DNA from: Patiriisocius sp.
GTDB lineage: Bacteria > Bacteroidota > Bacteroidia > Flavobacteriales > Flavobacteriaceae
NCBI RefSeq assembly: GCF_051252435.1
Contig: NZ_JBPOFW010000001.1
Coordinates: 888,826 to 952,825 of the forward strand
Direction: 5' to 3'
Length of the DNA: 64,000 nt
This document shows positions 1,410 through 63,291 of this stretch, piece by piece. The position numbers and the translations under genes were made by a program. The notes under the pieces were generated by a model. The model was not told the origin of the DNA. It was given only the letters and a program-made list of their open reading frames with translations, and made no database searches. Positions within the stretch are counted from its first letter, which is position 1. Each line of letters opens with the position of its first letter.

Positions 1410-3635
1410 TTAAAAATTAACTGTCACTTTTCCTCTCAAAAAGAAAGGCGTTCCCGGTGTAAAATGAATTTCCTCCACAGGTTCGGGTTCATTGAACAAT
1501 CGGCTTTCTGTGGCAAATTGCGTTTCGTTCCATTCTGTGTCAAATAGGTTTTCGATAATGATTCCGAAATCTATATTTCTGAAAGAATAATTTACGTTAA
1601 AATCTGTTACAAAATAGCCTTCGGCAATAATGCTGTTGTCTTCGTTGGCAGCGCGGTCTTTTAAATAACGGTAGTTGAGTCCGCCAGAAAAACCTTGTAA
1701 ATCCTCAAATGTCACACCACCGGTGCTCGTTAAATCTGGAGCCAACGGAATATAATCTTGTCCGCTGGGTTCTTCGGTGCTTCTTGCGTAGGTGTAGTTA
1801 ATATCTCCAAAAAAGTACAACCAGTCCAGTGCTTCAAAACGAGCGCCAACGTCAACACCTAATCTTCTTGTTTTTCCGCTGGGTTCAACGATACCAGCAT
1901 CTCCCACGTACACAAATTCTTGGTCTAAAAATAACGTCCATAGAGCCGCATTAAAAATTAAGCGGTCGTTGGCTCTAAAAATTCCACCCAAATCTGCGCC
2001 ATAGGCAGCAGGCAAAATATCCTCGCCACTATTGGCAACCACCACACGCGCATCGTTGGAGTGAAACCCGATTCCCGATTTTAAAAATAGCTGTATGTTT
2101 TGATTTGCTTTGTAAAAAAAGTTCAGTTTTGGGGTTGCAAATACTTTGCTCTCACTCTTATTGTCATACAATTCGCTCAATCTATTTACATAATCAAATT
2201 TAAAATAATCAAGACGCACGCCTGGGTTGAGTTTAAAATTTCCGAAGTCAAACTCCGTATTCAAAAACGCAAACGCATTCATTTGATTGACATCGCCAAA
2301 GGCAAGTCGCTCCAGTAATTCCTGTCTGTTTTTTGTGCGTGACAACTGTATGTCATTCACATCGTCATAGCGCAACCCACCTCCGGCTGTATATTCAAAA
2401 GGAGTTTCCAGTAATGAGGTTTGTTCTGTAAACGCCGTTTGAAAGCCCATTAAATTTCGGTCTTCAAATTGACGAATCTGATCACCATTTACAGGATCTT
2501 CGAGGAAAAATGTAAAGTTTGAAAACAGCTCAAAATCATAGTGCGAAAAATAAGCGCTACTCACTAGTTTTTTGGTTTCTGAAATTTGCTTTTCATGAGC
2601 AATCAAGATATTTGAACGACTCGTATTACCGCCTTCGGTATCATCGATGGCGCCAAAACGGCCAATCAACCCAGCAGCATCTACAGCACGTTGCGGAATC
2701 TGCCCGCTAGCATCCCACTTACTTTGAAAATGCGAAGCCGTAATACTTACCTTTTGGTCCTGCGGAAGTTTGTAGGTGTATTTCCCCATTAAATTGATAC
2801 GGTTAAAATTTTGAGGCGACACATAAGGCCCATCAAAAGTATTAAACGAACCTGCGATGTATGCATCGCTTTTTTCGGTATCCAAAACGTTGAATAGTCC
2901 TACCGTTCTAAAAGAATCGAAATCGCCATATTCAACAGAAATACTACTCTTGTCAATGCGTTCTTTTGTGCGGAAATCAACATATCCAGCCGTTGTAAAA
3001 TCTCCTTTTTTTGCATAGTACGGTCCTTTTCCAAACTCAATGTTCTTTACCGTTTCGGGGATTAAAAAGTGAAGGTCGCTATAGCCTTGACCGTGCGCGT
3101 GCGATACCATGTTTACAGGCATCCCATCAACGGTGAGGCTGATGTCTGTTCCGTGGTCAATGTCAAATCCGCGTAGAAAAATCTGTTCTGCTTTTCCGCC
3201 GCCTGCGTGCTGTCCAATAAATAATCCCGGAACTTGTCGCAATACTTCCTGCGTGTTTTTTACGGGATTTTTGTTGAGGTCAACGACTGCAATTTGGTTG
3301 AGCGTATTTATTTCGTTGGTGAGTACAATTTGAGATAACGAAACAGCACCTTGCGTTAATGTAATAGTAACAGGGTTGTTAAAATCGGTTGCTTTTACAG
3401 TATAATAAACGGTGCCGTAGCCCAAATATGAGCACGAAATTTTATCGTTGACGTCTACGTTTTCGAGCGTGAATTCTCCTGCTTGGTTTGTATGTGAGTG
3501 ATTGCCTTTTGTGGCGTTAAATATGGCCACATCTGCGAGCGGTATATTGTTTTGGGTTACTACAACACCATTGAACGTTTGCGCTTGCATCGCGAAACAG
3601 CAAAGTAGTACACTCCATAATAATGATAGTTTCAT
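1410..3635 (-). CDS. TonB-dependent outer-membrane receptor with a CarboxypepD_reg-like N-terminal domain
   Basis: 741 aa with a signal peptide (MKLSLLWSVLLCCFAMQAQ). Plug-like segment VLRQVPGLFIGQHAGGGKAEQIFLRGFDIDHGTDISLTVDGMPVN. Long beta-barrel ending in ...LRGKVTVNF (terminal aromatic). Confidence 0.85.
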   Translation of the reverse strand: MKLSLLWSVLLCCFAMQAQTFNGVVVTQNNIPLADVAIFNATKGNHSHTNQAGEFTLENVDVNDKISCSYLGYGTVYYTVKATDFNNPVTITLTQGAVSLSQIVLTNEINTLNQIAVVDLNKNPVKNTQEVLRQVPGLFIGQHAGGGKAEQIFLRGFDIDHGTDISLTVDGMPVNMVSHAHGQGYSDLHFLIPETVKNIEFGKGPYYAKKGDFTTAGYVDFRTKERIDKSSISVEYGDFDSFRTVGLFNVLDTEKSDAYIAGSFNTFDGPYVSPQNFNRINLMGKYTYKLPQDQKVSITASHFQSKWDASGQIPQRAVDAAGLIGRFGAIDDTEGGNTSRSNILIAHEKQISETKKLVSSAYFSHYDFELFSNFTFFLEDPVNGDQIRQFEDRNLMGFQTAFTEQTSLLETPFEYTAGGGLRYDDVNDIQLSRTKNRQELLERLAFGDVNQMNAFAFLNTEFDFGNFKLNPGVRLDYFKFDYVNRLSELYDNKSESKVFATPKLNFFYKANQNIQLFLKSGIGFHSNDARVVVANSGEDILPAAYGADLGGIFRANDRLIFNAALWTLFLDQEFVYVGDAGIVEPSGKTRRLGVDVGARFEALDWLYFFGDINYTYARSTEEPSGQDYIPLAPDLTSTGGVTFEDLQGFSGGLNYRYLKDRAANEDNSIIAEGYFVTDFNVNYSFRNIDFGIIIENLFDTEWNETQFATESRLFNEPEPVEEIHFTPGTPFFLRGKVTVNF

Positions 3636-3671
3636 GGGTATAATTTTTAAAAAGAATGAATAGTTGCCCAG

Positions 3672-3696
3672 CCAAAATACATTGCGAGTATTTTGG
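3672..3696. promoter_or_regulatory. Perfect 9-bp inverted repeat (CCAAAATAC-7nt-GTATTTTGG) between the His-rich gene and the TonB receptor gene
   Basis: Read directly from the sequence. No T-run follows on the minus strand, so it is not a classical terminator. It could be an operator or an RNA stem-loop. Confidence 0.5.
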
Positions 3697-3722
3697 GAAT
3701 TTGGGGTTTTTCTAGATAAAAA

Positions 3723-4302: not shown

Positions 4303-4315
4303 CACATTTCCGAAG
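4303..4315 (+). repeat. Intergenic copy of the iterated word CACATTTCCGAAG
   Basis: Read directly. Lies 27 nt upstream of the uvrC ATG. Confidence 0.9.
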
Positions 4316-4342: not shown

Positions 4343-6145
4343 ATGGCTCAAGCTTCTGTCACATTACAAATTTCCACACTTCCTGACGCTCCCGGCGTGT
4401 ATCAATATTATGATAAAGAAGGGAAATTATTGTACGTGGGTAAGGCGAAGAATTTGAAAAAACGGGTAAATAGCTATTTTACTAAAAAGCACGATAACGC
4501 CCGCACGCGCATGCTTGTTAAGCGCATTGTAGATATAAAACACATTGTTGTTGCCACGGAAACCGATGCCCTTTTGCTGGAAAATAACTTGATAAAAAAG
4601 TACCAGCCCAAGTATAATGTGATGTTGAAAGATGACAAATCCTATCCATGGATTTGTATTAAAAACGAACGTTTTCCGCGGGTATTCCCCACACGCCGAC
4701 TCATAAAAGACGGCAGTGAATATTATGGGCCTTACACCAGTATGAAAACCGTGCATACGCTGTTGGATTTAATAAAAGGTTTGTATCCATTACGCACCTG
4801 CAATTATGATTTGGCCGAAGATAAAATTAGAGATGGTAAGTACAAAGTATGTTTGGAATATCATTTAGGCAATTGTTCTGGGCCTTGTGAGGGGCTTTAT
4901 TCTGAAACTGAATACAATGAAAATATTGAAGCCATCCGAAACATCGTAAAAGGGAATTTTAAGGAGTCACTCGTTCGGTTTAAAAACCAAATGAAAGCGT
5001 ATGCAGAAAAAATGCTTTATGAAGATGCACAGCGAATCAAAGAAAAAATAGACATTCTTGAAAATTACCAAGCAAAATCTACGGTTGTAAATCCAAAAAT
5101 TAATAATGTAGATGTTTTCAGCGTTATCAGTGACGAGAGTTATGGGTATGTCAATTTTTTGCAATTGAGCTTTGGAGCAATTATAAGAAGCCACACATTG
5201 GAAATCAAAAAGAAATTGGACGAGAGCGACGAAGAACTATTAGAGCTCGCTGTGGTGGAATTGAGACAACGATTTAATTCGCAATCCAAAGAAATTTACG
5301 TACCATTTCCTATTACCACCGAGGAAGGAGTAAAGTTCCACATTCCAAAATTGGGAGACAAAAAGAAAATCCTCGACCTCTCCATTCGTAATGCTAAGTA
5401 TTACAGGATGGAGCGCTTTAAACAAGCTAAAATTGTTGATCCAGATCGGCATGAAAAACGCATCATGGCACAAATGAAAAAAGATTTGCGGTTGAGTGAA
5501 GAGCCAAGGCATATAGAGTGTTTTGACAACAGTAACATTCAAGGAACAAATCCCGTAGCGGCCTGTGTTGTTTTTAAAAACGGAAAACCCAGTAAAAAAG
5601 ATTATCGTAAATTTAATATCAAAACGGTTGTGGGGCCAGACGATTTTGCATCCATGGAAGAAGTGGTGTACCGCCGGTACAAAAGGTTAAAAGAAGAAGA
5701 GCAACCGCTGCCACAGCTCATTATTATTGACGGAGGAAAAGGACAATTATCCTCCTCTTTAAAAGCACTGGATTCATTAGGATTACGAGGTAAAATTGCC
5801 ATTATTGGAATAGCGAAAAGATTAGAAGAATTATTTTACCCAAACGACCCAATCCCTTTGTATCTTGATAAAAAAAGTGAAACTTTAAAAATCATACAAC
5901 AATTAAGGAATGAGGCACACCGTTTTGGTATCACCTTTCACAGGCAAAAAAGAAGTAAAGAAGCACTGAATACCGCACTAGAAACCATTCCTGGCATAGG
6001 AGAAAAAACAGTTATAGAATTGCTTCGGAAATTTAAAAGTACAAAGCGAATTGGGCAGGCAAGTTTTGAAGACCTGGCCAAGGTAGTGGGAGCGAGTAGG
6101 GCAAAGAAAATTATAACACATTTCCAAAATAAAAACACCGAATAG
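4343..6145 (+). CDS. uvrC: Excinuclease ABC subunit C
   Basis: 600 aa. GIY-YIG N-terminus (GVYQYYDKEGKLLYVGKAKNLKKRVNSYF), a UvrBC-interaction region, and a C-terminal endonuclease plus HhH region (IPGIGEKTVIELLRKF). Confidence 0.95.
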   Translation: MAQASVTLQISTLPDAPGVYQYYDKEGKLLYVGKAKNLKKRVNSYFTKKHDNARTRMLVKRIVDIKHIVVATETDALLLENNLIKKYQPKYNVMLKDDKSYPWICIKNERFPRVFPTRRLIKDGSEYYGPYTSMKTVHTLLDLIKGLYPLRTCNYDLAEDKIRDGKYKVCLEYHLGNCSGPCEGLYSETEYNENIEAIRNIVKGNFKESLVRFKNQMKAYAEKMLYEDAQRIKEKIDILENYQAKSTVVNPKINNVDVFSVISDESYGYVNFLQLSFGAIIRSHTLEIKKKLDESDEELLELAVVELRQRFNSQSKEIYVPFPITTEEGVKFHIPKLGDKKKILDLSIRNAKYYRMERFKQAKIVDPDRHEKRIMAQMKKDLRLSEEPRHIECFDNSNIQGTNPVAACVVFKNGKPSKKDYRKFNIKTVVGPDDFASMEEVVYRRYKRLKEEEQPLPQLIIIDGGKGQLSSSLKALDSLGLRGKIAIIGIAKRLEELFYPNDPIPLYLDKKSETLKIIQQLRNEAHRFGITFHRQKRSKEALNTALETIPGIGEKTVIELLRKFKSTKRIGQASFEDLAKVVGASRAKKIITHFQNKNTE

Positions 6146-6146: not shown

Positions 6147-8387
6147 TTGAAGTTATTCGTACACATAATAATGTTGCTGATTTGCACAATGACCATTGCG
6201 CAAGTTCCCGAAAGCACTCCTAAAAAAGATTTAAAAGTAGGTCTTGTTTTAAGTGGTGGTGGTGCCAAAGGACTTGCACATATTGGGGTTCTTAAGGCGA
6301 TTGATTCTGCTGGGGTGCGCTTGGATTATATTGGTGGTACCAGTATGGGAGCCATCATTGGTGGACTATATGCTTCGGGATATTCTGGAAAACAGATTGA
6401 TTCGATTTTTAAGGAAGTAGATTTCAATAGATTAATACAAGATGATATCCCTAGAAGTGCTACTACTTTCTATGAAAAAGCGGAGGACGAAAAATACGGG
6501 GTAACGCTTCCGTTTGATGGATTTAAAATACGTTTTCCTTCGGGGCTTTCTAAAGGACAGAATGTGTATAATTTACTTTCCAAATTAATGGCGCACGTTG
6601 ACACAACCGATGATTTTTCGCAGCTACCCATTCCGTTTTTCTGCATGGCGACTAACCTTGAAACAGGAAAGGAAGTATTGCTTGAAAATGGATATCTCCC
6701 CAGGGCAATTTTGGCGAGTGGTGCTTTACCTTCGCTGTTTTCTCCAGTTATTATAAATGACCAAGTACTTATCGATGGAGGTGTAGTTAATAACTACCCC
6801 ATTGAGCAATTAAGAAAAAAGGGAGTCGACGTAATCATTGGCGTTGACGTTCAAGATGTGCTACGTGATAAAGATGGGCTTCGGTCTGCTTTTGATGCAT
6901 TAGTGCAAATAAATAATTATCGCACCATCGAAGCTATGGTGGCTAAAAAAGCAGCTACTGACGTGTACATTCGGCCTGAAATTAGAGACTTTAGCGTTGT
7001 TTCTTTTGATGAAGGAAGAAGAATTATAAAAAATGGTTACGAAGCTGCAATGGTATTTGAAGATGTCTTGAACAACTATTCGAGCCAACAACAAACCTCT
7101 GCCCGTGAGGTTGTTAAATTTCAGCAAAATGATAATATAGAGATTAGAAGTGTAGAAGTCAATGGCACAAATAAATACACTGAAAAGTATGTGCTGGGTA
7201 AGTTAAAATTAAAACTGCCTGCTTTGACAACTTTTAGAGATTTCAGTAATGGAGTCAATAATCTTTCGGCTACGGGTAATTACAACAGTATTGACTACCG
7301 CTTTATTGAGGATGAGGATGGAAGCTACAAGGTGGTTTTCAATGTGAATGAAACAAAACAACGAATGTCATTGCGCTTTGGGGTTCATTATGACGACTTA
7401 TATCGCACATCTGCGTTAGTGAATTTAACCTATAAAAGGTTATTGACCAATAATGATGTAGCAAGTGTAGATGTTATTATTGGGGATAATTTTCGCTACA
7501 ATGCCAACTACTATATTGACAAAGGCTATTATTGGAGTATTGGGTTGAATAGTTCGTTTGATTTTTTTGAAAAGGATATCCCCATTTCTTTGGTAAATGA
7601 CCCAGGTTTTATCGCTCCCGAAGGCCTCAACCAATTGGAGTTACAATATAACGACTTTACAAATAGGCTGTTTTTTGAAACGTTATTTAAGCGAACATTT
7701 ACCATTGGAACAGGTGTTGAGCATAAATATTTGAGATTACTTTCTGAAACGTTAGGAATTGACGAACAAAATAACCTGCGCACAGTTTTTGAAAGTACTA
7801 ACTATTATAGCGCTTTTGGGTACGCTAAATACGATAGTCTCGATGACCCATTTTTTCCATCTAGCGGTTTCTTTTTAGATGGTGATATTCATTTTTATGC
7901 TTTCGCCGAAGGGCGGAATAATGACTTTGAGCAATTTGCAATTCCAAAGGCAAAATTTGGTTATGCCACAAAAATATTTGATAAATTTTCAATGTATGTT
8001 ACGGCCGGAGGAGGCTTTAAAATAGGTGATGACACTACAAAATCGTTAGATTTTTTATTGGGCGGATACGGTTTTAAAAATCTAAATAACATCATTCCAT
8101 TTTATGGCTATGAGGCATTGAGCATTCGCGGTGACACGTATTTAAAATCTATGTTGTCAATTGACTATGAAATTTTTAAGAAGAGCCATATTCAAATCTT
8201 CGGAAATATAGCAAACGTGGGAGATGATTTGCTTGTTGACGCTCAGTGGATTGACGGAATAGATTACAGTGGTTTCGGAATCGGTTACGGTCTTGAAACT
8301 TTTATGGGTCCCGTCGAAGTGAGATACGCCCACTCGCCAGAAAGAAGCACAGGAGAGTGGCACGTGAGTGCGGGGTTTAGGTTTTGA
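6147..8387 (+). CDS. Patatin-like phospholipase with a C-terminal Omp85/surface-antigen-like beta-barrel (PlpD-like architecture)
   Basis: 746 aa. Motifs GLVLSGGGAKGLAHIGVL and GTSMGA (serine lipase motif) and DGGVVNNYP (catalytic Asp). The C-terminal region is beta-rich and ends ...WHVSAGFRF. The ORF-track start at 6147 is TTG; an ATG alternative lies at 6171. Confidence 0.8.
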   Translation: MKLFVHIIMLLICTMTIAQVPESTPKKDLKVGLVLSGGGAKGLAHIGVLKAIDSAGVRLDYIGGTSMGAIIGGLYASGYSGKQIDSIFKEVDFNRLIQDDIPRSATTFYEKAEDEKYGVTLPFDGFKIRFPSGLSKGQNVYNLLSKLMAHVDTTDDFSQLPIPFFCMATNLETGKEVLLENGYLPRAILASGALPSLFSPVIINDQVLIDGGVVNNYPIEQLRKKGVDVIIGVDVQDVLRDKDGLRSAFDALVQINNYRTIEAMVAKKAATDVYIRPEIRDFSVVSFDEGRRIIKNGYEAAMVFEDVLNNYSSQQQTSAREVVKFQQNDNIEIRSVEVNGTNKYTEKYVLGKLKLKLPALTTFRDFSNGVNNLSATGNYNSIDYRFIEDEDGSYKVVFNVNETKQRMSLRFGVHYDDLYRTSALVNLTYKRLLTNNDVASVDVIIGDNFRYNANYYIDKGYYWSIGLNSSFDFFEKDIPISLVNDPGFIAPEGLNQLELQYNDFTNRLFFETLFKRTFTIGTGVEHKYLRLLSETLGIDEQNNLRTVFESTNYYSAFGYAKYDSLDDPFFPSSGFFLDGDIHFYAFAEGRNNDFEQFAIPKAKFGYATKIFDKFSMYVTAGGGFKIGDDTTKSLDFLLGGYGFKNLNNIIPFYGYEALSIRGDTYLKSMLSIDYEIFKKSHIQIFGNIANVGDDLLVDAQWIDGIDYSGFGIGYGLETFMGPVEVRYAHSPERSTGEWHVSAGFRF

Positions 8388-9845: not shown

Positions 9846-9858
9846 TACATTTCCGAAG
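9846..9858 (+). repeat. Intergenic copy of the iterated word TACATTTCCGAAG
   Basis: Read directly. Lies between hmgA and the DUF3108-like gene, 64 nt upstream of the ATG at 9923. Confidence 0.9.
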
Positions 9859-11656: not shown

Positions 11657-12922
11657 TTGATTCTGAAGTTTTTCTTCGGAAATATTAAACGAATTTCCCT
11701 TTTGAAATACCTACTATATATACTGCCGGCGCTATTTTTACTACTATCATGTGAAGAGGAAATCAAAGAAGACGACTCCATTGTTCCTCTTTCCGAAGAA
11801 GAAATAATAACAAGAGAATACGGTTATACGTTGAATGATTTCAACGTAGTGCGTGATACCATTAGAAAAGGAGACACCTTTGGAGGAATTTTAAACGAAA
11901 ATGGCGTCAACAACTCGAAGATTTTTGAAGTTGCTACACGCTTTAAAGATAGTTTTGATGTACGTAGGATCGTGGTGGGCAAGCCTTACGTATTGTTAAA
12001 TTCTAAAGACACTTTAAATACTACCCAAGTTTTCATATATGAAAAGAGTAAAGTGGATTATGCGGTAATTGATTTTAGAGATGATGTGTCGGTAAACTTA
12101 TTTCAGAAACCCATAAAATATGTTGAGCGCGAGGATTCTGGGATTATTACAAATTCGCTTTCAGTCACGATGGAAGAGAACAATCTAAGTCCGGCGATGA
12201 CTGAACGATTGGCAAATATTTATGCTTGGACGGTCAACTTTTTTAAACTCCAAAAGGGCGACCGCTTTAAGGTTGTTTATACTGAAAAATATATTGACGA
12301 TACCATACCTGCAGGGATTGACAAGATAAAAGCCGCATATTTTGAACATAAGGGAGTGCCTTTGTATGCATTTGGATATAATAATGACAGCCTGCACGGA
12401 TTTGATTTTTATGACGAAAAAGCCGAAAATTTACGACGAGCATTCTTAAAGGCTCCGGTAAAATTTAGTCGTATTTCTTCAAAATATAATCTTAAAAGGC
12501 GTATTAAATATTATGGATATAAACTGCGTCCTCACAAAGGGACAGATTTTGCCGCACCTATAGGAACCCCCATTTTAGCAACAGCAGACGGTACCGTAAC
12601 CGAATCTGAGCGTCGTGGCGGTAATGGTAATTATGTAAAAATTAAACATAATAGCACTTACGATACACAATATTTACACATGAAAAGCCGCAATGTTCGT
12701 GTTGGTAATTATGTTCGTCAAGGAGATGTCATTGGTTGGATAGGAATGACAGGAAATACTGGGGGCCCACATGTATGTTATCGTTTTTGGAAAAATGGAA
12801 AGCAAGTTGATCCTTTTCAGGAAGATTTGCCGGCTTCAAAACCGCTACCAACAGAATTTCGTGAAGACTATTACGCGAAAATAGAGCCTTTAAAAACGCA
12901 GTTAGATTGTATCAAATTTTAG
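11657..12922 (+). CDS. M23 family metallopeptidase (lipoprotein). The start codon is uncertain.
   Basis: HKGTDFAAPIGTPILATADGTV ... GMTGNTGGPHVCYRF (LytM/M23 motifs). There is no ATG near the 5' end. The track start at 11657 is TTG. An in-frame TTG at 11702 would give (M)KYLLYILPALFLLLSC, a clean lipoprotein signal. Confidence 0.8.
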   Translation: MILKFFFGNIKRISLLKYLLYILPALFLLLSCEEEIKEDDSIVPLSEEEIITREYGYTLNDFNVVRDTIRKGDTFGGILNENGVNNSKIFEVATRFKDSFDVRRIVVGKPYVLLNSKDTLNTTQVFIYEKSKVDYAVIDFRDDVSVNLFQKPIKYVEREDSGIITNSLSVTMEENNLSPAMTERLANIYAWTVNFFKLQKGDRFKVVYTEKYIDDTIPAGIDKIKAAYFEHKGVPLYAFGYNNDSLHGFDFYDEKAENLRRAFLKAPVKFSRISSKYNLKRRIKYYGYKLRPHKGTDFAAPIGTPILATADGTVTESERRGGNGNYVKIKHNSTYDTQYLHMKSRNVRVGNYVRQGDVIGWIGMTGNTGGPHVCYRFWKNGKQVDPFQEDLPASKPLPTEFREDYYAKIEPLKTQLDCIKF

Positions 12923-13096: not shown

Positions 13097-15742
13097 ATGA
13101 AAAAACTATTACTAATTACTTTTATGGCAATAGCAGGGATGGCTTCATCGTTTGCTCAAGGTACCGTAACAGGAACTGTTGTTGATGCAGATCTTGGTGG
13201 ACCTTTGCCGGGCGCTAATGTTCTTGTAACAGGAACAACAAATGGAACCATTACAGATTTTGATGGTAACTTTACATTAGAGGTAGCAAATAATACGGGT
13301 ACTCTTACACTAAGCTACGTAGGTTTTACAGGAAGAACTGTTAAGTACACGCTTCAAAATGGTGTTGCAAATTTAGGGTCACTTGATATTACTCCAGATG
13401 CAGCTTCACTTGATGAGGTTATCATTGTAGGAAGTGGAGTTATTCAAGTAGCAGAAGGACGTACAACTCCAGTTGCCGTTTCAACAATTAGAGAGGAAGA
13501 AATCCGCTTGAAAGTTGCTGGTAATGCAGAATTTACTGAGTCATTTAAAAACACACCTTCGGTTTATGTTGCAAACCAAGGAAGTGGTTTTGGTGATAGT
13601 GAGGTTTTCTTAAGAGGATTTGATGACACTAACACAGCATTTTTATTGAACGGTCAACCTATCAATAGCCAGGAAGATGGTCGTATGTTTTGGTCAAACT
13701 GGTCTGGTATGAGTGATGTAGCTAATGCTGTGCAGGTACAAAGAGGACTTGGTGCTTCTAAGCTTGCCATTTCTTCAGTAGGTGGTACCGTGAACATTAT
13801 ATCTAAGACTACAGATAAACAACAAGGTGGGTCTGTGCGTGTACTTGGCGGTAATGATAGTTACTTTAAAGGTACTGTTTCATATGATTCAGGATTGAAC
13901 GAAAATGGTTGGGCATTTTCAGTATTATTAGATCACTGGCAAGCACACAGAAAATATGCTATTGGTACTGCTGGGCAAGGACAAAATTATTTGTTTGCAG
14001 TAGGTTATAAGCCAAGTGATAGAAGTTCTTTCAACTTTTTACTTACTGGTGCTCCACAGTTTCACGATCAAAACTTCAGCAATAGACAAGAGGTGTATGA
14101 TGAGTTTGGTGGAAAACACAATACTCAAACAGGTTTCTTAGACGGAGAGCGTTACACAGAACGCCGTAATTACTACCACAAGCCAGTGGCAAACTTAAAC
14201 TGGGATTATGAGGTTAGTGATAAAACGGATTTATCTACAGTGGCATATGCTTCATGGGGCCGCGGTGGTGGTACAGGAGGTTTGGGTTCAAGTTCAAATC
14301 GTGTACGAATTAACAACAATCCAAACCAAGAAATCGATTTTGAGCAAATAAGAGATAACAACATCGCAAGAGCTGATAATGGTGTTGGAAACTTTGGTGA
14401 TTCTTTTATTAGGAGAGCTTCAGTGAACAATCACAACTGGTATGGATTACTTTCTAACTTAAATTATGAAGCAAATGAAAACTGGGATTTAAGTATTGGT
14501 GTTGACGCAAGACTTTATAAAGGAGATCATTTCCGTCAGGTAAATGATTTATTGGGTCTTACAGGATTTAATGACAACTTTGGAACGGATCGTCCAGATG
14601 GTTACACGTTTCAAAATGAATATGATGCAGATCCATGGTCAGCCTTATTTGACTATGCAAATGAAGCAAACCGTACGCAATATGATTATAGTGAGAACAT
14701 TAATTATGTAGGTGGTTTTGGTCAAGCAGAATATGTTTCTGGTGGATTCTCAGCTTTTGTGCAAGGTGCCGTTTCTACACAATCTTTTCAAAGAACGGGA
14801 CGTTTTACAGGAACTACGATTGATGGTGTTGACGGTTTAGGAGAATCTGAAAAAATCAGCAAACTAGGTTATAATGCTAAAGGTGGATTGGGTTATGCAA
14901 TTAATGATGCAAGTACTTTCTTCGGAAACGCTGGATATTATTCAAAGCAACCTTATTTAGATAATATTTTTCAAGATATCAGAAATTCAAATGCATTAGT
15001 TCAACCAGAAGTTGAGAATGAAGAAATTTTAGGATTTGAAGCAGGATATCGTTATAAAGCAGGAAACCTTAGAATAAATCTTGATGTTTATAGAACAGAG
15101 TGGGGAAATCGTTATGTAGCTTCTAGTGGAAGAACTACTGATTTAAGTGATCCAGAAAATCCAGTTGATGTGTTTTTTACAGATCGTTTTACAGACGTTA
15201 CTCAAATACACCAAGGATTTGAATTTGACTTTGAATACCGTCCAGATAGTGACCTTTACAGACTTAAAGGATATGGTTCATTAGGAAACTGGAAATATGA
15301 CGGAGCAACTCCATTTACACGTCAAAATGATGACACTTTAGAATTTATAACTCCCGAAGATAATACACTTGATCTTTCTGGGGTTAAAGTAGGTCGTGCG
15401 CCACAAACATCTTTCGGAGCTGGACTTATGATTAAATTATGTGAAGGACTTTCTATCGATGGTGATTACAATGTATATACAGACTTATATGCAAGAGTTG
15501 ATGCTGATCAAGTAATTGAAGCTGCACAAGACGGTGTAAGATTTCAGTCAGAAAGACTTGATCCTTACGGATTATTAGATTTAGGTCTTACTTACAAATT
15601 TAACTTTAGCGGAAACAAATTAACTTTCCGTGCTAATGCTTATAATGCAACTAATGAGGCATTCATAACTAGAAAAGATAATTTTGGTGTTGGACTTGGA
15701 AACGGTAGAACGTATAACGCAAGTTTACGTTATGCTTTCTAA
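13097..15742 (+). CDS. TonB-dependent outer-membrane receptor (CarboxypepD_reg + plug + barrel)
   Basis: 881 aa. Signal peptide, then GTVTGTVVDADLGGPLPGANVLVTGTTNGTITDFDGNFTL, FLRGFDDTNTAFLLNGQPIN, and a terminal ...ASLRYAF. Confidence 0.85.
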   Translation: MKKLLLITFMAIAGMASSFAQGTVTGTVVDADLGGPLPGANVLVTGTTNGTITDFDGNFTLEVANNTGTLTLSYVGFTGRTVKYTLQNGVANLGSLDITPDAASLDEVIIVGSGVIQVAEGRTTPVAVSTIREEEIRLKVAGNAEFTESFKNTPSVYVANQGSGFGDSEVFLRGFDDTNTAFLLNGQPINSQEDGRMFWSNWSGMSDVANAVQVQRGLGASKLAISSVGGTVNIISKTTDKQQGGSVRVLGGNDSYFKGTVSYDSGLNENGWAFSVLLDHWQAHRKYAIGTAGQGQNYLFAVGYKPSDRSSFNFLLTGAPQFHDQNFSNRQEVYDEFGGKHNTQTGFLDGERYTERRNYYHKPVANLNWDYEVSDKTDLSTVAYASWGRGGGTGGLGSSSNRVRINNNPNQEIDFEQIRDNNIARADNGVGNFGDSFIRRASVNNHNWYGLLSNLNYEANENWDLSIGVDARLYKGDHFRQVNDLLGLTGFNDNFGTDRPDGYTFQNEYDADPWSALFDYANEANRTQYDYSENINYVGGFGQAEYVSGGFSAFVQGAVSTQSFQRTGRFTGTTIDGVDGLGESEKISKLGYNAKGGLGYAINDASTFFGNAGYYSKQPYLDNIFQDIRNSNALVQPEVENEEILGFEAGYRYKAGNLRINLDVYRTEWGNRYVASSGRTTDLSDPENPVDVFFTDRFTDVTQIHQGFEFDFEYRPDSDLYRLKGYGSLGNWKYDGATPFTRQNDDTLEFITPEDNTLDLSGVKVGRAPQTSFGAGLMIKLCEGLSIDGDYNVYTDLYARVDADQVIEAAQDGVRFQSERLDPYGLLDLGLTYKFNFSGNKLTFRANAYNATNEAFITRKDNFGVGLGNGRTYNASLRYAF

Positions 15743-17527: not shown

Positions 17528-17659
17528 TGAATGTGTAATATTAAGTTTATGTAAAGGATTCTGTAATTGAAGATTCAAAAGTAAATAATTGAATTGAAAG
17601 TCCTACTTTTGCTCGCATTTCATAACAATTTAATAATTATAACTCTTTAAAATTTCAGA

Positions 17660-20518: not shown

Positions 20519-20552
20519 ACAATAAAAATTAGAACACTTTAATATATTTCAG

Positions 20553-22843: not shown

Positions 22844-22854
22844 ACTGTATTAAA

Positions 22855-22894
22855 ATAAAAAACCCTCATTTCCCGATAAATCGTTCTATGAGGG
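22855..22894 (-). terminator. Terminator of the T9SS adhesin operon
   Basis: On the minus strand: ccctcat-18nt-atgaggg followed by T-rich ttttttatttt, 37 nt after the OmpA-family stop. Confidence 0.6.
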
Positions 22895-22930
22895 CCTAGC
22901 TTCTTGGTTGGTTAAGCTAATTTTTACATC

Positions 22931-24826: not shown

Positions 24827-24849
24827 TTTGAATGAAATTAAAGTTGTTA

Positions 24850-25776: not shown

Positions 25777-25810
25777 TAGATTGGTATTTATTTTTTTATT
25801 GTTTACTTTC

Positions 25811-27934: not shown

Positions 27935-27952
27935 TTTACTTGAGTTATATTT

Positions 27953-32314: not shown

Positions 32315-32433
32315 CAAGAATCTTTTTGGAGTTATTTTTCGGCTAAATTTAGTTAAAATATGTTAATGAAAATTGGATCCTTTGACTTTTAGATGAAGTG
32401 CATAAATTTACGACGAAACGCATATCTACCATA

Positions 32434-33501: not shown

Positions 33502-33515
33502 ACATATTTCCGAAG
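33502..33515 (+). repeat. Intergenic copy of the iterated word ACATATTTCCGAAG
   Basis: Read directly. Lies 6 nt from the terminator at 33522..33553. Confidence 0.9.
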
Positions 33516-37312: not shown

Positions 37313-37325
37313 CACATTTCCGAAG
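37313..37325 (+). repeat. Intergenic copy of the iterated word CACATTTCCGAAG
   Basis: Read directly. Lies between sufE and the DUF59 gene, both of which are on the minus strand. Confidence 0.9.
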
Positions 37326-44141: not shown

Positions 44142-44154
44142 CACATTTCCGAAG
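44142..44154 (+). repeat. Intergenic copy of the iterated word CACATTTCCGAAG
   Basis: Read directly. Lies between the peroxidase stop (44192) and the sufA start (44026). Confidence 0.9.
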
Positions 44155-50681: not shown

Positions 50682-51452
50682 TTAATCGATAAAGTGCATA
50701 AACTTTAACATTTCAGCTTCATCAGTCATCCAGCTCATGTGACCTCCGAAAACAATTTTTAAAGGTGTTTTTGTCTCTTCGGAAATTTCTTCGGAAACCG
50801 AAATAGGAACAATCGTATCTCTTTTACCAGCAATTATCAACTTGTCACCACCAAAGTTTTTTAAAACCGAAGATCTATCTTTTCTATCCCGCATTCCTCT
50901 AATGTTTGCAATGATACCATCCGTTGGAAAATCCATCGCCTGTTTTTTCAATTCAGAAATTTCCGAAGAGAACCGCAAACGATTTTCATTGGTAAAAAGA
51001 TTGCCAATTGCCATGCTCACGATAGCATGTTTTTGGGTTTTCATAAATTTAATGGCTCGGTCGCGATTCTCTTTTCGGTCATCACTATCTTTTTGCGTTG
51101 AGGAATTGACTAACACCACTTTGTCCACACGGTTTGGAAATAATTCAATAAAAGCAAGCGCCACATAACCGCCCATTGAGTGACCAATAATTGAAGCTAC
51201 TTCGATGTTGTGTTTGTCTAAAATTTCCGCAGTTATTGCAGCCATCAGTTCCATTGTGTGGGTTTTTGAAACAACGCCACTCTTGCCGTGACCGGGGAGG
51301 TCGATGGTAATTATAGTGTGGTTTTTTTTAAATTCTTCGATGGTGCGAGCCCACATCGCGCTACTTTCTAAAAAGCCATGCAGCAATACCAGCGCGGGGC
51401 CTGTGCCTTGTATGTCATAAAAAATAGAGGCGTTGTTGTAGCTTAAGTTCAT
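50682..51452 (-). CDS. Alpha/beta-fold hydrolase
   Basis: 256 aa. LLHGFLESS (oxyanion region), nucleophile elbow GHSMGG, and a C-terminal His (GGHMSW). Confidence 0.85.
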   Translation of the reverse strand: MNLSYNNASIFYDIQGTGPALVLLHGFLESSAMWARTIEEFKKNHTIITIDLPGHGKSGVVSKTHTMELMAAITAEILDKHNIEVASIIGHSMGGYVALAFIELFPNRVDKVVLVNSSTQKDSDDRKENRDRAIKFMKTQKHAIVSMAIGNLFTNENRLRFSSEISELKKQAMDFPTDGIIANIRGMRDRKDRSSVLKNFGGDKLIIAGKRDTIVPISVSEEISEETKTPLKIVFGGHMSWMTDEAEMLKFMHFID

Positions 51453-54997: not shown

Positions 54998-57844
54998 ATG
55001 AAACATATTTATTATTTACTATTACTGATTTTTTTCTTCGGAAATGTTAATGCTCAACAACCTGCTACTTCAGCAGATAAAATTTTAAGTTCACTTGAAC
55101 AGAAACAGTCAATGACCGAAACTTCTTTGGTCAAAAATCTACCTTTTAAAAATATTGGCCCTACTATTATGAGTGGGCGCGTTGTGGATCTTGCCGTAAA
55201 CCCAAATAACCCCACCGAATTTTACGTGGGATATGCAAGTGGGGGCGTTTGGCACACGAAAAATAATGGAACCACATTTACTCCCGTTTTAGATTCTAGT
55301 CCAACTCAAAATGTGGGGTCGCTAGCGGTAGACTGGAAAACCAAAACTATCTGGGTAGGAACAGGAGAAGTAAATTCATCGCGATCAAGTTATGCCGGAA
55401 TCGGATTACTGAAATCTAACGACAATGGAAAGACTTGGGAAAATATGGGGCTTGCAGACAGTCATCATATTTCAAAAATCATTATCAATCCTAACAATGC
55501 AAACGAAATTTTAGTTTCAGCAGTTGGCCATCTTTATTCTAAAAACAACGAAAGAGGTATTTACAAAACAATGGACGGTGGAAAAACTTGGAAGCAAACA
55601 CTTTTTGTAGATGACCAAAGCGGAATTATTGAAATGGACGCAGACCCTAATAATTTCAACCTGGTATATGCTTCATCGTGGGATAAAGATAGAAAGGCGT
55701 GGAATTTTCGAGGAAGTGGAAGTGGGAGTGCCATCTATAAAAGCACAGATGCAGGTAATTCTTGGACAAAAGTGTCAACACTAGAAAGTGGTTTCCCCAC
55801 AGGAGAAGGTGTCGGTAGAATAGGCCTTGCCGTTGTCGATGCAAATATTGTTTACGCAGTGCATGATAATCAAGCAAGAAGAGAAGGTGGAGATAAAAAA
55901 AAGAGTGGCGATGACCTTTCAAAAGAACAGTTTAAAACGATGACCTCAAGTCAGTTTTTAGCACTTGATGATAAAAAGCTAAACGCATATTTGAAGAATA
56001 ATGGTTTTCAAGAAAAGTATAGAGCAGACAATGTAAAATCGATGGTTCGTGGTGGTACGGTAAAGCCTATTGATTTAGCGAAGTATTTAGAAGACGCAAA
56101 CTCAATGTTATTTGATACGCCAGTAATTGGTACAGAAGTTTATAAAAGCACAGACGGCGGAAAGACATGGAAAAAGACCCACGAAGGATTTCTTGACGGA
56201 ATTTATTACAGTTATGGCTATTATTTTGGAAAAATCCATGTAGATCCGAGTGATAAAGATGGGATTTATATTTACGGTGTTCCAATTTTAAAGTCAAAAG
56301 ACGGAGGAAAAACATTTACATCCATTTCGGCAGATAATGTTCATGCAGATCATCACGCTCTATGGATCAATCCAAATATGCCTGGCCACTTAATAAATGG
56401 AAACGATGGAGGTGTGAATATAAGTTATGATGACGGTGAGAATTGGATTAAAAACAATGCGCCAGCTGTGGGACAATTTTATGCTGTAAATGTTGATAAT
56501 GAAGAGCCTTATAGTGTGTATGGTGGATTACAGGATAATGGTGTTTGGGTAGGCGCACATACCAATGAAGAAAATCCCAGGTGGAAGCAAAACGGACAAT
56601 ATCCCTTTGAGTTTATTATGGGAGGTGACGGGATGCAGGTTCAGATTGACAACCGTGATAGCAATGTGGTTTACACGGGATTTCAATTTGGAAATTATTT
56701 CAGACTTAATAGAAAAACGAATGAGCAAGCATATATTCAACCCAAGCACGAATTGGGCGATAATCCGTACCGCTTTAATTGGCAGACTCCAATTTTATTG
56801 AGCTCGCACAATCAAGATATTCTTTATTTAGGCGGAAATAAATTGATGCGTTCCATGAACAAAGGGAATGACTGGACTGCGATTTCGCCAGATGTTACCA
56901 ATGGAGGAAAACAAGGAAATGTGGCGTATGGAACTATCTCGTCTTTAGACGAATCTACGTTTCAGTTTGGATTGTTATATACAGGAAGCGATGATGGCGT
57001 AGTGCAAGTGACCAAAGACGGTGGCAGTAACTGGCAAAATATTTCCAGCACTTTACCTCAAGATTTATGGGTAAGTAGAGTAATTGCTTCCACGCATAAA
57101 AAAGAACGTGTCTACCTTACATTAAATGGGTATCGCTGGGATGATTTTACTCCCTATGTTTATATGAGTGATAACTATGGCATATCTTGGGAGCCAATTT
57201 CAAATAACTTACCTGCATCTCCCGTAAATGTAATTAGGGAAGATCCATCGAATGAAAATGTGCTATACTTAGGAACGGACAACGGTGCTTATGTATCCTT
57301 CAATCGAGGAAAAAGTTGGGAAGCGTTTAGCGATGGTTTGCCCTCAGTAGCCGTTCATGATTTGGTAGTTCAAAAGCGCGATAAAGATTTGGTTGTTGGA
57401 ACACACGGAAGATCTATTTATATCGCAGATATTAGTTTGATTCAGCAAATTTCTGAAACAAATATGAATACGTTAATGCTTGCTGAAATTCCAGATCAAA
57501 GAGCCTCACGTCGTTGGGGAAGCACAGGATTTGATCAATACGGAGATGTTTTTGAACCTTCTTTAATACTTCAAATTTACGCACCCAAATCAGGCAAAGC
57601 CGAAATTTTAATCACCAATGAGGACGGAAAAGAATTAAATTCTTGGAAATTAGATTTAAAAAAGGGATTCAATATCATGGATTATAATATGGGCGTTTCT
57701 GAAAAAGGTAAAAAACAATTGGAGCGCGATGAGAAAAATGCTTTTGAAGGAGATAATGGCCAATTTTATTTAAGTAAAGGCTCTTACAAAATCATGGTTA
57801 TATTAGGTGAAAACACCGTTTCTCAGACGTTAGTTTTAGAGTAA
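54998..57844 (+). CDS. Secreted BNR/Asp-box repeat protein, sortilin/VPS10-like double beta-propeller
   Basis: 948 aa with a signal peptide. Many S-x-D-x-G-x-T-W Asp-boxes (SNDNGKTW, TMDGGKTW, STDAGNSW, STDGGKTW, SKDGGKTF, TKDGGSNW, SDNYGISW, NRGKSW). Confidence 0.7.
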   Translation: MKHIYYLLLLIFFFGNVNAQQPATSADKILSSLEQKQSMTETSLVKNLPFKNIGPTIMSGRVVDLAVNPNNPTEFYVGYASGGVWHTKNNGTTFTPVLDSSPTQNVGSLAVDWKTKTIWVGTGEVNSSRSSYAGIGLLKSNDNGKTWENMGLADSHHISKIIINPNNANEILVSAVGHLYSKNNERGIYKTMDGGKTWKQTLFVDDQSGIIEMDADPNNFNLVYASSWDKDRKAWNFRGSGSGSAIYKSTDAGNSWTKVSTLESGFPTGEGVGRIGLAVVDANIVYAVHDNQARREGGDKKKSGDDLSKEQFKTMTSSQFLALDDKKLNAYLKNNGFQEKYRADNVKSMVRGGTVKPIDLAKYLEDANSMLFDTPVIGTEVYKSTDGGKTWKKTHEGFLDGIYYSYGYYFGKIHVDPSDKDGIYIYGVPILKSKDGGKTFTSISADNVHADHHALWINPNMPGHLINGNDGGVNISYDDGENWIKNNAPAVGQFYAVNVDNEEPYSVYGGLQDNGVWVGAHTNEENPRWKQNGQYPFEFIMGGDGMQVQIDNRDSNVVYTGFQFGNYFRLNRKTNEQAYIQPKHELGDNPYRFNWQTPILLSSHNQDILYLGGNKLMRSMNKGNDWTAISPDVTNGGKQGNVAYGTISSLDESTFQFGLLYTGSDDGVVQVTKDGGSNWQNISSTLPQDLWVSRVIASTHKKERVYLTLNGYRWDDFTPYVYMSDNYGISWEPISNNLPASPVNVIREDPSNENVLYLGTDNGAYVSFNRGKSWEAFSDGLPSVAVHDLVVQKRDKDLVVGTHGRSIYIADISLIQQISETNMNTLMLAEIPDQRASRRWGSTGFDQYGDVFEPSLILQIYAPKSGKAEILITNEDGKELNSWKLDLKKGFNIMDYNMGVSEKGKKQLERDEKNAFEGDNGQFYLSKGSYKIMVILGENTVSQTLVLE

Positions 57845-61524: not shown

Positions 61525-61537
61525 CATATTTCCGAAG
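61525..61537 (+). repeat. Intergenic copy of the iterated word CATATTTCCGAAG
   Basis: Read directly. Lies 8 nt after the sdh terminator and 84 nt upstream of vsr. Confidence 0.9.
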
Positions 61538-61621
61538 TTCAAATAATTCTATTTTCATCGAAAGGAAACTTGTAATTCCTTTAACAGAAATAATCCGAAT
61601 TCATCCGTATTTTTAAATCGA

Positions 61622-62101
61622 ATGATTAAATACGACGATAACGGAAAAATAATTGTCCCTCGTTTTAATGAGGAATCTGGTTTTTATACCACGAAAAAAC
61701 GCTCAAAGATTATGAGTAAAATTCGAGGAAAAAACACAAAGCCAGAGATGCTCCTTCGCAGAGCGCTTTGGAAAAATGGCCTGCGATACCGCGTCAATAA
61801 TAAAAAGCTTCCCGGCACGCCAGATGTTTCTATCACAAAATATAAACTCGCCATATTTGTGGATGGCGAATATTGGCACGGTTATGATTGGGATGTTCGG
61901 AGAGATAAAATTAAAACCAATAGAGAATTTTGGATTCCAAAAATTGAACGAAATATGCAAAAAGATACTGAGGTAAATAAAAAACTCAGCGAATTAGATT
62001 TCACAGTTTTTAGATTTTGGGAAAGCGAAATCAAGAACGATTTACAAAAATGTGTGAATGATATTTTGCAATACATTTCTGTATATCCGTATTTAATTTA
62101 G
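61622..62101 (+). CDS. vsr: Very-short-patch-repair endonuclease
   Basis: 159 aa. RSKIMSKIRGKNTKPEMLLRRALWKNGLRYRVNNKKLPGTPDVSITKYKLAIFVDGEYWHG is the canonical Vsr core. Confidence 0.9.
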   Translation: MIKYDDNGKIIVPRFNEESGFYTTKKRSKIMSKIRGKNTKPEMLLRRALWKNGLRYRVNNKKLPGTPDVSITKYKLAIFVDGEYWHGYDWDVRRDKIKTNREFWIPKIERNMQKDTEVNKKLSELDFTVFRFWESEIKNDLQKCVNDILQYISVYPYLI

Positions 62102-62154
62102 TGCATTAAGCAACACTCAAAAGTTTAACTATCTTAGCAAAAAGCTGTGTTTCT

Positions 62155-63291
62155 ATGAAATTTAAATTACCCGAAATTCCAACGTCCATATTTTCAGTGA
62201 TGAGTAAAATGGCAACCGATTATAATGCCATTAATCTCTCGCAGGGATTTCCAAACTTCCCCAGCGACCCTAAATTAATTGCATTGGTTACAAAAGCAAT
62301 GAAAGAGGGTAACAATCAATATGCTCCAATGGCGGGAACATTTGCTTTGCGAGAAATCATTGCTCAAAAAGTGGATTCACTTTACAATAAAAAATACGAC
62401 CCAGCGACCGAAATCACAATAACAGCCGGTGCAACTCAAGCAATTTTTACAGCAATCGCAGCAACAATTTCCAAAGGGGATGAGGTTATCATTTTTACGC
62501 CGGCGTATGATTGTTATGCGCCCACGATTGAGCTGTTTGGTGGCGTTGTAAAATCCATTCAACTGCAATCACCACATTATGCGCCAGATTGGGATTTGGT
62601 GCGAGATACCATTTCAGGAAAAACAAAAATGATTATTATCAACAGTCCCCACAATCCAAGTGGCATGCTTTTTAAGGAAAACGATATGTTACAATTACAG
62701 CAAATTTCCGAAGCGAATAATGTACTCGTTATTAGTGATGAGGTTTATGAGCATATCATTTTTGACGGTCACGTGCATCAAAGCGCAGCGAAGTTTGAGG
62801 CACTCTCAAAAAGGACGTTCATTACCGCTTCTTTTGGAAAAACATTCCACAATACGGGTTGGAAAATGGGGTATTGCTTGGCGCCTCAAAAATTGATGAA
62901 AGAGTTTCAAAAAGTACATCAGTACAATGTATTTTGCGTCAATCATCCTATGCAAATTGCATTTTCGGAATATCTCAAAACACCCGCTCATTATTTGGGT
63001 TTGCCCAAATTCTACCAGCAGAAAAGGGATTATTTTTTAGCAAAGCTGAAATCATCCAGATTTAAAATAATTCCGTCAAAAGGTACTTATTTTCAGCTAT
63101 TGGATTTTAGTGACATTTCAGAAGAAAGTGATATTGCATTTGCAGAACGGTTGACAAAAGAAAACGGAATTGCCACAATACCTACTTCGGTTTTTAACGC
63201 CGACAAAAAAGACTTTAAACAGATACGTGTTTGTTTTGCTAAAACCAACGATACACTCGAAGCCGCTGCTGCTATTTTGAATAGCATTTAA
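62155..63291 (+). CDS. PLP-dependent aminotransferase, class I/II (YbdL-type methionine aminotransferase-like)
   Basis: 378 aa. INLSQGFPNF, NSPHNPSG and SFGKTFHNTGWKMGY (PLP Lys). Confidence 0.8.
   Translation: MKFKLPEIPTSIFSVMSKMATDYNAINLSQGFPNFPSDPKLIALVTKAMKEGNNQYAPMAGTFALREIIAQKVDSLYNKKYDPATEITITAGATQAIFTAIAATISKGDEVIIFTPAYDCYAPTIELFGGVVKSIQLQSPHYAPDWDLVRDTISGKTKMIIINSPHNPSGMLFKENDMLQLQQISEANNVLVISDEVYEHIIFDGHVHQSAAKFEALSKRTFITASFGKTFHNTGWKMGYCLAPQKLMKEFQKVHQYNVFCVNHPMQIAFSEYLKTPAHYLGLPKFYQQKRDYFLAKLKSSRFKIIPSKGTYFQLLDFSDISEESDIAFAERLTKENGIATIPTSVFNADKKDFKQIRVCFAKTNDTLEAAAAILNSI

Follow-up and report, generated by a model that had tools for sequence, protein, structure and literature searches.

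What keeps one short DNA word at 21 places in 64 kb of a flavobacterial chromosome, inside genes as well as between them? The stretch in question (the window, i.e., 64,000 nucleotides of contig NZ_JBPOFW010000001.1) comes from a metagenome-assembled genome (MAG) of Patiriisocius sp., and the word is the 9-mer TTTCCGAAG or, in its longer form, the 10-mer ATTTCCGAAG. A reading made earlier from the letters of the DNA alone (the sequence-only reading) had drawn attention to it and had likened it to the DNA uptake sequences (DUS) of Neisseria and the uptake signal sequences (USS) of Pasteurellaceae. We show here that the constraint acts on the DNA word rather than on the encoded peptide. We also propose, with about even confidence, that ATTTCCGAAG is a DNA-uptake signal of the genus Patiriisocius; this is the best explanation because the word has sequence-level properties like those of the Neisseriaceae and Pasteurellaceae signals, and because a plausible importer is encoded in the same window.

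The 9-mer was present as 21 exact copies, 10 on the forward strand and 11 on the reverse, a density of about one per 3-4 kb (Table 1). Every coordinate and strand given by the sequence-only reading was exact, as was its count of 17 copies extending to ATTTCCGAAG. The word is non-palindromic, its reverse complement being CTTCGGAAA. The earlier rough figure of less than one copy expected, and hence of tens-of-fold enrichment, was borne out when nulls were computed: shuffles preserving dinucleotides (n = 100) gave a mean of 0.52 copies with a maximum of 2, and the Markov-2 expectation was 0.62 for the 9-mer (21 observed) and 0.18 for the 10-mer (17 observed). With a Markov-4 model these expectations were 1.7 and 0.54, respectively. 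With either model the word ranked first in the window at k = 8, 9 and 10, and it is the commonest 9-mer and 10-mer there, despite the CpG within it and a G+C content of 37%. Higher-order Markov and codon-shuffled nulls were among the checks that the sequence-only reading had put forward, and on the window the enrichment persisted under both. For Patiriisocius, all counts cover the 64-kb window plus 42 kb of P. marinistellae. As a loose background control, metagenome contigs were scanned with the 14-mer ACATTTCCGAAGAA; this returned at least 120 unrelated contigs, with 14 extra copies of the 9-mer in 779 kb, and none of the few multi-copy contigs that were checked had homology to proteins of the window.

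The word forms the core of a motif that is longer and weaker (approximately A-n-A-TTTCCGAAG-a-a-a) and whose information spans at least 12 positions. A is preferred at −3 and −1 and an A-rich run extends from +1 to +4, with the same preferences in the window and in P. marinistellae. No conservation was detected beyond about ±4 bases across the 21 copies, so that they are not parts of a longer dispersed repeat, which was one of the outcomes on which the sequence-only reading would have fallen. One-off variants were mildly enriched (33 against 18 expected). One of them, TTTCCGTAG, occurred eight times against 0.55 expected, at 10971, 18525, 25199, 30585, 38831 and 52233 (+) and at 59311 and 59740 (−). 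Scans of the window found no Rfam family and no tRNA overlapping any copy. Two structural candidates were considered and rejected. A hairpin of the form ATTTC-CGAA-GAAAT, or a cUUCGg tetraloop on the opposite strand, would need a full dyad, which was found at only one of the 21 copies. Inverted pairs about 105 nt apart (11674/11790 and 33395/33507) do not form an element, the intervening sequences being unrelated: M23 peptidase coding DNA in the first case and a gene start plus terminator in the second. By a rough estimate, not a computed one, the three or four close pairs are within chance.

Constraint on the DNA word, not on the peptide

Our gene calls (48 genes, 91.6% of the window) treated the copy at 33395 as intergenic, so that the 21 copies divide into 14 coding, six intergenic, and 33395. 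We used three codon-aware nulls of 200 rebuilds each, in which synonymous codons were shuffled within genes, synonymous codons were pooled across genes, or codon order was shuffled within genes. With the intergenic copies kept in place these gave 7.5-7.9 copies on average, i.e., about 0.5-0.9 coding copies, against the 14 observed. The coding copies occupy five combinations of orientation and frame, five of the copies being sense and nine antisense, and the tally of frames made by the sequence-only reading (FGN seven times, [LIV]SE[EA] five times, and LRK, KFPK and SSEI once each) was correct.

At these sites the codons are unusual ones. Phe-Gly-Asn (FGN) is written cTTC GGA AAy at seven of the 13 FGN tripeptides of the window, where TTC makes up only 19% of Phe codons. 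At the 18 FGN or FGK sites together, 0.30 occurrences were expected and seven observed (p ~1e-8, assuming a chance of 0.2 that the preceding codon ends in C). TCC, which accounts for 6% of Ser codons, encodes four of 11 SE[EA] sites, and the remaining frames are supplied by the rare codons CGG (4% of Arg) and CCG (10% of Pro).

The control word TTTCWGAA(A), the second most exceptional in the window (31 copies against 7.4 expected), behaved differently. As many as 41 of 53 copies of TTTCWGAA lie in a single frame, spelling x-Ser-Glu, and its enrichment is therefore a peptide effect and not part of the phenomenon. TTTCWGAA(A) does supply cheap one-step precursors: a single synonymous change (TCA or TCT to TCC) creates the word, which makes [LIV]SE[EA] a cheap site. 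We also noted a related word, TTTCAGAAG, at 9797, 26275, 59571 and 63116, and an enrichment of TTTCWGAA(A) in Jejudonia (L004).

Comparison with orthologues of other genera was possible at five coding sites. When the uvrC codons of 80 related genomes were aligned, the site was mostly TTG AAG CAT (LKH); none of the 80 carried the word, and CTT CGG AAA (LRK) occurred in the window alone. At the other four sites (patatin, M23 peptidase and two TonB receptors), no aligned orthologue had the word, and the differences included amino-acid replacements.

The proteins of the window were 100% identical to those of a MAG deposited at NCBI as Patiriisocius sp. The nearest species to the MAG is P. marinistellae. 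Two of its loci, syntenic with about 10.5-55 kb of the window, contained 10 copies of TTTCCGAAG in 42.5 kb where 0.19 were expected (p ~1e-14), and the top-ranked word in them was again TTTCCGAAG. Eight of the 13 alignable window sites were intact in P. marinistellae, whereas the flanking 60 bases on each side were 57-81% identical (mean 70%); the sequence-only reading had proposed to ask whether the word rather than its flanks is kept in sister species, and at these sites it is. If a neutral 9-mer survives with a probability of about 0.04, the p value for 8 of 13 is ~1e-8; with a survival of 0.1 it is ~1e-5. The intergenic copies at 37317 and 44146 are islands of identity amid indel-ridden flanks. 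Five sites were found in the window only, four of them with one or two mismatches in P. marinistellae and the fifth (11790) in a poorly alignable linker, and two sites were found in P. marinistellae only.

Because the codon-aware nulls, the rare codons, the orthologue differences (replacements among them) and the retention of the word in diverged sister flanks all bear it out, we conclude that the constraint acts on the DNA word and not on the peptide, as the sequence-only reading had stated. Two other origins, with protein composition or codon usage creating the enrichment as an artefact or a dispersed mobile repeat having left the copies behind, together have in our estimation a negligible chance of being right. 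Half of the coding copies do fall in one peptide (FGN), four of the 14 lie in TonB-receptor-like genes, and some copies of a shorter core, TTCCGAAG, recur elsewhere with near-identical flanks, all of which such an artefact or repeat might produce. It would not, however, account for the 14 coding copies where the synonymous-shuffle and codon-order nulls give about 0.7, for rare codons specifically at word sites, for the six or seven copies that are intergenic, for flanks that share nothing beyond the few bases nearest the core, or for copies that overlap no Rfam or tRNA feature.

Table 1. Positions in the window of the copies of TTTCCGAAG and of the three genes of the candidate importer locus, with the state of each site in P. 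marinistellae where given
Feature	Position	Strand	Context	P. marinistellae
Word copy	2239..2247	+	Antisense in TonB-dependent receptor gene (FDFGNF); orthologues TTT GGT GAC	
Word copy	4307..4315	+	Intergenic, 27 bp upstream of uvrC	
Word copy	6023..6031	−	Antisense in uvrC; sense CTT CGG AAA (LRK)	
Word copy	8198..8206	−	Patatin/Omp85 gene (QIFGNI); orthologues mostly NI[AS]ANI	
Word copy	9850..9858	+	Intergenic	
Word copy	11674..11682	−	M23 peptidase gene, signal-peptide region	Intact
Word copy	11790..11798	+	M23 peptidase, variable N-terminal linker (PLSEEE)	Missing; linker poorly alignable
Word copy	14920..14928	−	TonB-dependent receptor (TFFGNA)	CTTTGCAAA
Word copy	17513..17521	−	EEP nuclease N-terminus (MKFPKY)	Intact
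Word copy	18880..18888	−	Within DdbC-like transporter gene	TTTTGGAAA
Word copy	20470..20478	−	DdbC-like gene, 3' end	CTTTGGATA
Word copy	33395..33403	−	N-terminus (MSKISEA) of frameshifted EEP paralogue	Intact
Word copy	33507..33515	+	Intergenic, adjoins terminator-like hairpin	TTTCCGCAG
Word copy	37317..37325	+	Intergenic, inside suf cluster	Intact; flanks 57% identical, with indels
Word copy	44146..44154	+	Intergenic, upstream of suf cluster	Intact; flanks 68% identical
Word copy	50777..50785	−	Alpha/beta hydrolase gene (ISEE), tandem pair with 50789	Intact
Word copy	50789..50797	−	Alpha/beta hydrolase gene (VSEE), tandem pair with 50777	Intact
Word copy	50960..50968	+	Antisense in hydrolase gene (SSEI)	Intact
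Word copy	55036..55044	−	Sortilin/BNR protein gene, signal-peptide region (FFFGNV)	
Word copy	61529..61537	+	Intergenic, just past hairpin downstream of succinate dehydrogenase Fe-S subunit gene; 84 bp upstream of vsr	
Word copy	62705..62713	+	Aminotransferase gene (QISEAN)	
Secreted EEP-family nuclease (Exo_endo_phos_3)	16469..17578	−	Candidate machinery; Pfam E = 6e-119	
952-aa outer-membrane protein	17660..20518	+	Candidate machinery; signal peptide and CarboxypepD_reg; architecture as RA0C_RS04915 / DdbC	
DUF5689 lipoprotein	20553..21959	+	Candidate receptor; Pfam PF18942 E = 1e-45; family of RA0C_RS04920 / DdbD	

Placement and strand of the copies

Copies are about four times as dense between genes as within them (six in 8.4% of the window, p = 0.006), and those in coding DNA concentrate at the ends of proteins (nine of 14 in the terminal 15%, p = 0.008), where they occupy signal peptides, linkers and C-termini. 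Each of the six intergenic copies precedes a start codon by 27-120 bp. A 12.9-kb cluster of adhesin genes related to the type IX secretion system (T9SS), at about 22-32 kb, contained no copy (P = 0.015 at the density of the window); the variant TTTCCGTAG does occur within it. This T9SS-related cluster (22097-32317) encodes an OmpA/PD40 protein, PorP/SprF and two CHU_C adhesin-like proteins of 707 and 1454 aa, and it is missing between the DUF5689 and hflX genes in the syntenic Marixanthomonas locus (L210).

The position of the intergenic copies bears on the main rival to an uptake signal, which is that an abundant chromosomal DNA-binding protein binds the word in some internal role, for instance in organising the nucleoid, as a reader in self-marking or defence, or as a global regulator; that role, and not a bias in uptake, would then maintain about a thousand sites. 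Placement upstream of a start codon in six of six cases favours such a protein, and conservation of the word in diverged flanks, strand symmetry and the intergenic preference are equally expected of it. We nevertheless think it unlikely. As many as 14 of the 21 copies are inside genes, in either orientation, and no candidate protein was identified among the genes of the window. Noc, SlmA, MatP and ParB have tens of mostly palindromic sites, and we know of no bacterial protein with an internal role whose site is a non-palindromic 10-mer occurring about once per 3 kb and forced into coding DNA at a cost in rare codons and amino acids.

Within the window there was no orientation bias relative to transcription and no strand pattern suggesting a replication-linked skew, the two orientations being interleaved; GC skew there tracks gene orientation and gives no usable replication direction. 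The strand distribution is informative about a second alternative, in which the word would be a Chi-like recombination hotspot, where a helicase-nuclease of the AddAB/RecBCD type stops degrading DNA and loads RecA. A short, asymmetric, over-represented word found once per 3-4 kb and conserved between related species is what one would look for in a Chi site, and E. coli Chi has a density of about one per 4.5 kb. However, known Chi sites are 5-8 nt long and co-oriented with replication, with about 75% or more on one strand, whereas the word carries information over a dozen positions or more and is split 10:11 between the strands with no single switch point (the probability of 11 or fewer of 21 is 0.02 if the bias is 75%). 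The fourfold intergenic enrichment is also not a property of Chi, and we judge this alternative highly improbable.

Another possibility, which we regard as quite improbable, is that the word is a functionless by-product of biased repair or gene conversion, either very short patch (VSP) repair, with Vsr restoring a methylated CpG context, or some process of the kind that might underlie HIP1. It has in its favour that a vsr gene is present at 61622-62101 (Pfam E = 1e-30) with a copy of the word just upstream, that the word contains CpG, and that HIP1 in cyanobacteria is a case of extreme word enrichment with no known function. Vsr, however, works on T:G mismatches alone, within contexts of about 5 bp. 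The only sequences that it could convert to the word are TTTCTGAAG and TTTCCAAAG, whose combined expectation is about 3.4; three and two were observed, so that these precursors are not depleted. VSP repair was rejected as the cause on this arithmetic and on the undepleted precursors. The near-exclusive choice of base at most core positions would also be left unexplained, and the window encodes no cytosine methyltransferase. As for a process like that behind HIP1, words of that type are palindromes; the present word is not one, and its more symmetric relative TTTCCGAAA has no copy in the window.

Two further observations concern the same DNA. The vsr gene is an orphan, with no cytosine methyltransferase adjoining it. 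Several palindromes are strongly depleted in the window relative to Markov-2 expectation (TTCGAA, 8 against 40; TCCGGA, 4 against 17; GATC, 190 against 388), which suggests restriction-modification pressure, and TCCGA is scarce outside the word.

A candidate DNA importer and the uptake-signal proposal

The window encodes a homologue of the Riemerella-type DNA importer that is a plausible receptor for the word. The locus at 16469-21959 (Table 1) matches both RA0C_RS04915/RS04920 and ddbBCD by domain architecture and gene order, as judged from Pfam matches and published descriptions. In Riemerella anatipestifer, RA0C_RS04915 and RA0C_RS04920 are among the genes that natural transformation requires (PMC8459023), and the pair was later related to DdbC and DdbD of Bacteroides thetaiotaomicron, where DdbCD is described as a TonB-dependent DNA transporter with a lid modelled as a DNA-binding protein and an adjoining nuclease (PMC12478041). 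The EEP-family nuclease of the window occupies the same position as the nuclease that adjoins the uptake genes in Riemerella and B. thetaiotaomicron in the published locus comparison (PMC12478041). The same gene order was found in four related genomes, i.e., P. marinistellae, Marixanthomonas and two other relatives. In the DUF5689 protein a lipobox, VSSC, is followed by VQDDD, and the mature N-terminus C-VQDDD fits the published Bacteroidota surface-export signal.

A second EEP nuclease paralogue, of cytoplasmic type, lies at 32437-33412 on the reverse strand and is split over three reading frames. One of its frameshifts is caused by a 20-bp tandem duplication (ATCGACGGTGAGATTCTGAA twice) at about 33267-33306. 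The paralogue is intact (320 aa) in P. marinistellae (L202:19900-20862), and the split form is either a pseudogene or an assembly error of the MAG.

We propose the following. Extracellular double-stranded DNA would be imported through an outer-membrane importer of the Bacteroidota type, consisting of the DdbC-like TonB-dependent transporter capped by the DUF5689 surface lipoprotein, together with the accompanying nuclease, all of them encoded in the window. Fragments bearing the word would be bound or passed more readily. Conspecific DNA would recombine into the chromosome, so that fragments bearing the word would be over-transmitted, and the word would as a result accumulate and be maintained on both strands. 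It would settle where it costs least, i.e., in intergenic DNA, in signal peptides, at protein termini, and at FGN or [LIV]SE[EA] sites that need only codon swaps. The fullest form of this proposal is one to which we lean a little less than to the uptake signal itself, giving it somewhat short of an even chance: that this is the first uptake signal outside the Proteobacteria, a genus-level 'self' tag, ATTTCCGAAG, read by a SusCD-like TonB-dependent importer (DdbC plus a DUF5689 lid) and not by a type IV pilus, and that TTCCGWAG cores in Salinimicrobium, Christiangramia and others are its dialects.

Several points weigh against the proposal. Competence, sequence-biased uptake and the part of DUF5689/DdbC as reader are all things that we infer, and genome-wide enrichment is extrapolated from two species and a single stretch of synteny, about 55 kb long. 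The word, at one per 3-4 kb, is about threefold less dense than the known signals, DUS in Neisseria and USS in Haemophilus occurring about once per kb. Its spacing is not more even than random (coefficient of variation 1.0), and no inverted-pair terminators were found among the copies of the window. A terminator-like hairpin stands beside only two of the six intergenic copies (33507 and 61529); the description of copies as placed beside terminators, made in the sequence-only reading, thus holds for these two and fails for the other four. For a confident AlphaFold (AF2) model of the DUF5689 protein, with a pLDDT (predicted local distance difference test) score of 86, the top Foldseek matches were beta-sandwich carbohydrate-binding and adhesin domains and not a DNA-binding fold; matches of this kind neither support nor exclude DNA binding. 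The related system of B. thetaiotaomicron serves DNA catabolism, and DdbD was likened to a non-specific DNA binder (PMC12478041). Homologues of RA0C_RS04915/RS04920 are reported to be widespread in Flavobacteriaceae (PMC8459023), and three other genera (L209-L211) have the importer locus with little or no enrichment of the word, so that the presence of the importer does not discriminate. With these reservations, likeness to DUS and USS remains the best fit to every testable sequence-level feature, and it is joined by a plausible receptor in the window. In its favour we count the exact asymmetric core with weaker AT-rich flanks, the even use of the strands, the excess between genes, the low-cost coding positions, the enriched variant TTTCCGTAG, the species-specific sites and the T9SS-related cluster devoid of copies.

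Beyond the genus the 9-mer is scarce. The next-nearest genera with the same gene cluster had 0-2 copies, and TTTCCGAAG was rare across 80 uvrC loci of other Flavobacteriaceae. The shorter core TTCCGAAG was found at 7-13 copies per ~22 kb in Salinimicrobium, Christiangramia, some Aequorivita-like MAGs and an Allomuricauda MAG, at 5-7 times the codon-aware null and in both orientations; it was at or below expectation in many other Flavobacteriaceae, and many genera had none. Across loci, TTCCGTAG co-varied with TTCCGAAG (Spearman 0.47), and it was enriched in Christiangramia (L052; 9 against 0.6). Some copies of TTCCGAAG in other genera have near-identical flanks at similar coordinates, as for conserved coding positions. 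In L209, a context nearly identical to that of the window copy at 20470 has TTCCGAAG near the 3' end of the DdbC-like gene (orthology inferred, not aligned). The NNCCGAAG words of L210 (Marixanthomonas) and L036 (Gaetbulibacter jejuensis) are mostly single-frame, a pattern that also fits the artefact explanation discussed above. There, TGCCGAAG occurred seven times against 0.4 expected and AACCGAAG seven times against 0.5. Both have the core CCGAAG in common with the window word, and five or six of the seven copies are in one sense frame (nnT GCC GAA G and nnA ACC GAA G, respectively), so that the enrichment may reflect codon-pair effects rather than dialects. Since some copies appear to be shared conserved coding positions and the NNCCGAAG words are mostly single-frame, the evidence for lineage dialects of the word is suggestive only. 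Other iterated 9-mers were seen in uvrC neighbourhoods, i.e., the overlapping CGCGAAAGC, TTCGCGAAA and CGCTTTCGC in a Dokdonia MAG (L073; 9-10 copies each) and the overlapping ATGAGTCTA, AGACTCATA and CTATGAGTC in Thermobacterium salinum (L005; seven copies each); these are probably small repeat elements.

Uptake signal sequences have, to our knowledge, been described in just two families of Proteobacteria, where the composition of genomes, the proteomes and the barrier to gene flow between species are all shaped by them. Full-text literature searches returned no uptake sequence or equivalent iterated word for Flavobacteriia or Bacteroidota, in agreement with the earlier statement that nothing equivalent had been described for Flavobacteriia. 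If our proposal is right, uptake signals would also exist in a further phylum, coupled to an outer-membrane DNA importer that works by another mechanism. There would then be a concrete, testable explanation for an unexplained preference: R. anatipestifer and R. columbina favour their own DNA in uptake, no signal was identified, and raw k-mer counts in Riemerella gave only A-rich words (PMC7965970). Marine Flavobacteriaceae would be naturally transformable with a preference for conspecific DNA, and abundant marine flavobacteria would be exchanging genes by transformation. Adding the word to donor DNA might render Patiriisocius and its relatives genetically tractable, and since a genome assembly of a P. 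marinistellae strain is deposited (GCA_009014635.1), the decisive uptake assay looks feasible.

Comparison with known systems

Set beside other iterated sequences, the word is unlike repeats of the repetitive extragenic palindrome (REP) or miniature inverted-repeat transposable element (MITE) type, from which it differs in its unconserved outer flanks, in showing a dyad at a single copy, and in having no Rfam match. With Chi it shares over-representation, asymmetry and a density of one per several kb; unlike Chi, it is longer, intergenic-enriched and free of strand skew. Like the cyanobacterial HIP1 (GCGATCGC), it is a short word with extreme over-representation in coding and non-coding DNA alike. 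HIP1, however, is palindromic and is linked to methyltransferases, whereas the Patiriisocius word is asymmetric, with even its more palindromic relative absent from the window; the likeness to HIP1 suggested by the sequence-only reading therefore fails.

The Riemerella system (RA0C_RS04915/RS04920, DdbCD family) resembles the window in its candidate machinery, a nuclease, a CarboxypepD_reg outer-membrane protein and a DUF5689 protein in the same arrangement, as judged by domains and order; it differs in that no uptake word was found there. With Pasteurellaceae USS (a 9-nt core with AT-rich flanks), the word has in common a core plus AT-rich flank and one-off variants that are modestly enriched. 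Its copies occupy 'cheap' frames and parts of proteins that are poorly conserved, and they alter amino acids; this is the pattern of co-evolution between USS and proteome. It departs from USS in being sparser, in lacking demonstrably even spacing, in its machinery, and in being known here from sequence alone. Compared with Neisseriaceae DUS (10-12 nt, read by the minor pilin ComP), the word is about threefold sparser, lacks inverted-pair terminators and belongs to another phylum, and neither a type IV pilus nor ComP is implied, the candidate importer being a TonB-dependent transporter with a DUF5689 lid. It resembles DUS, however, in its length (10-12 nt), in not being a palindrome, in joining an exact core to weaker flanks, in lying on either strand, both within genes and, in excess, between them, and in being common to related species with variation between lineages.

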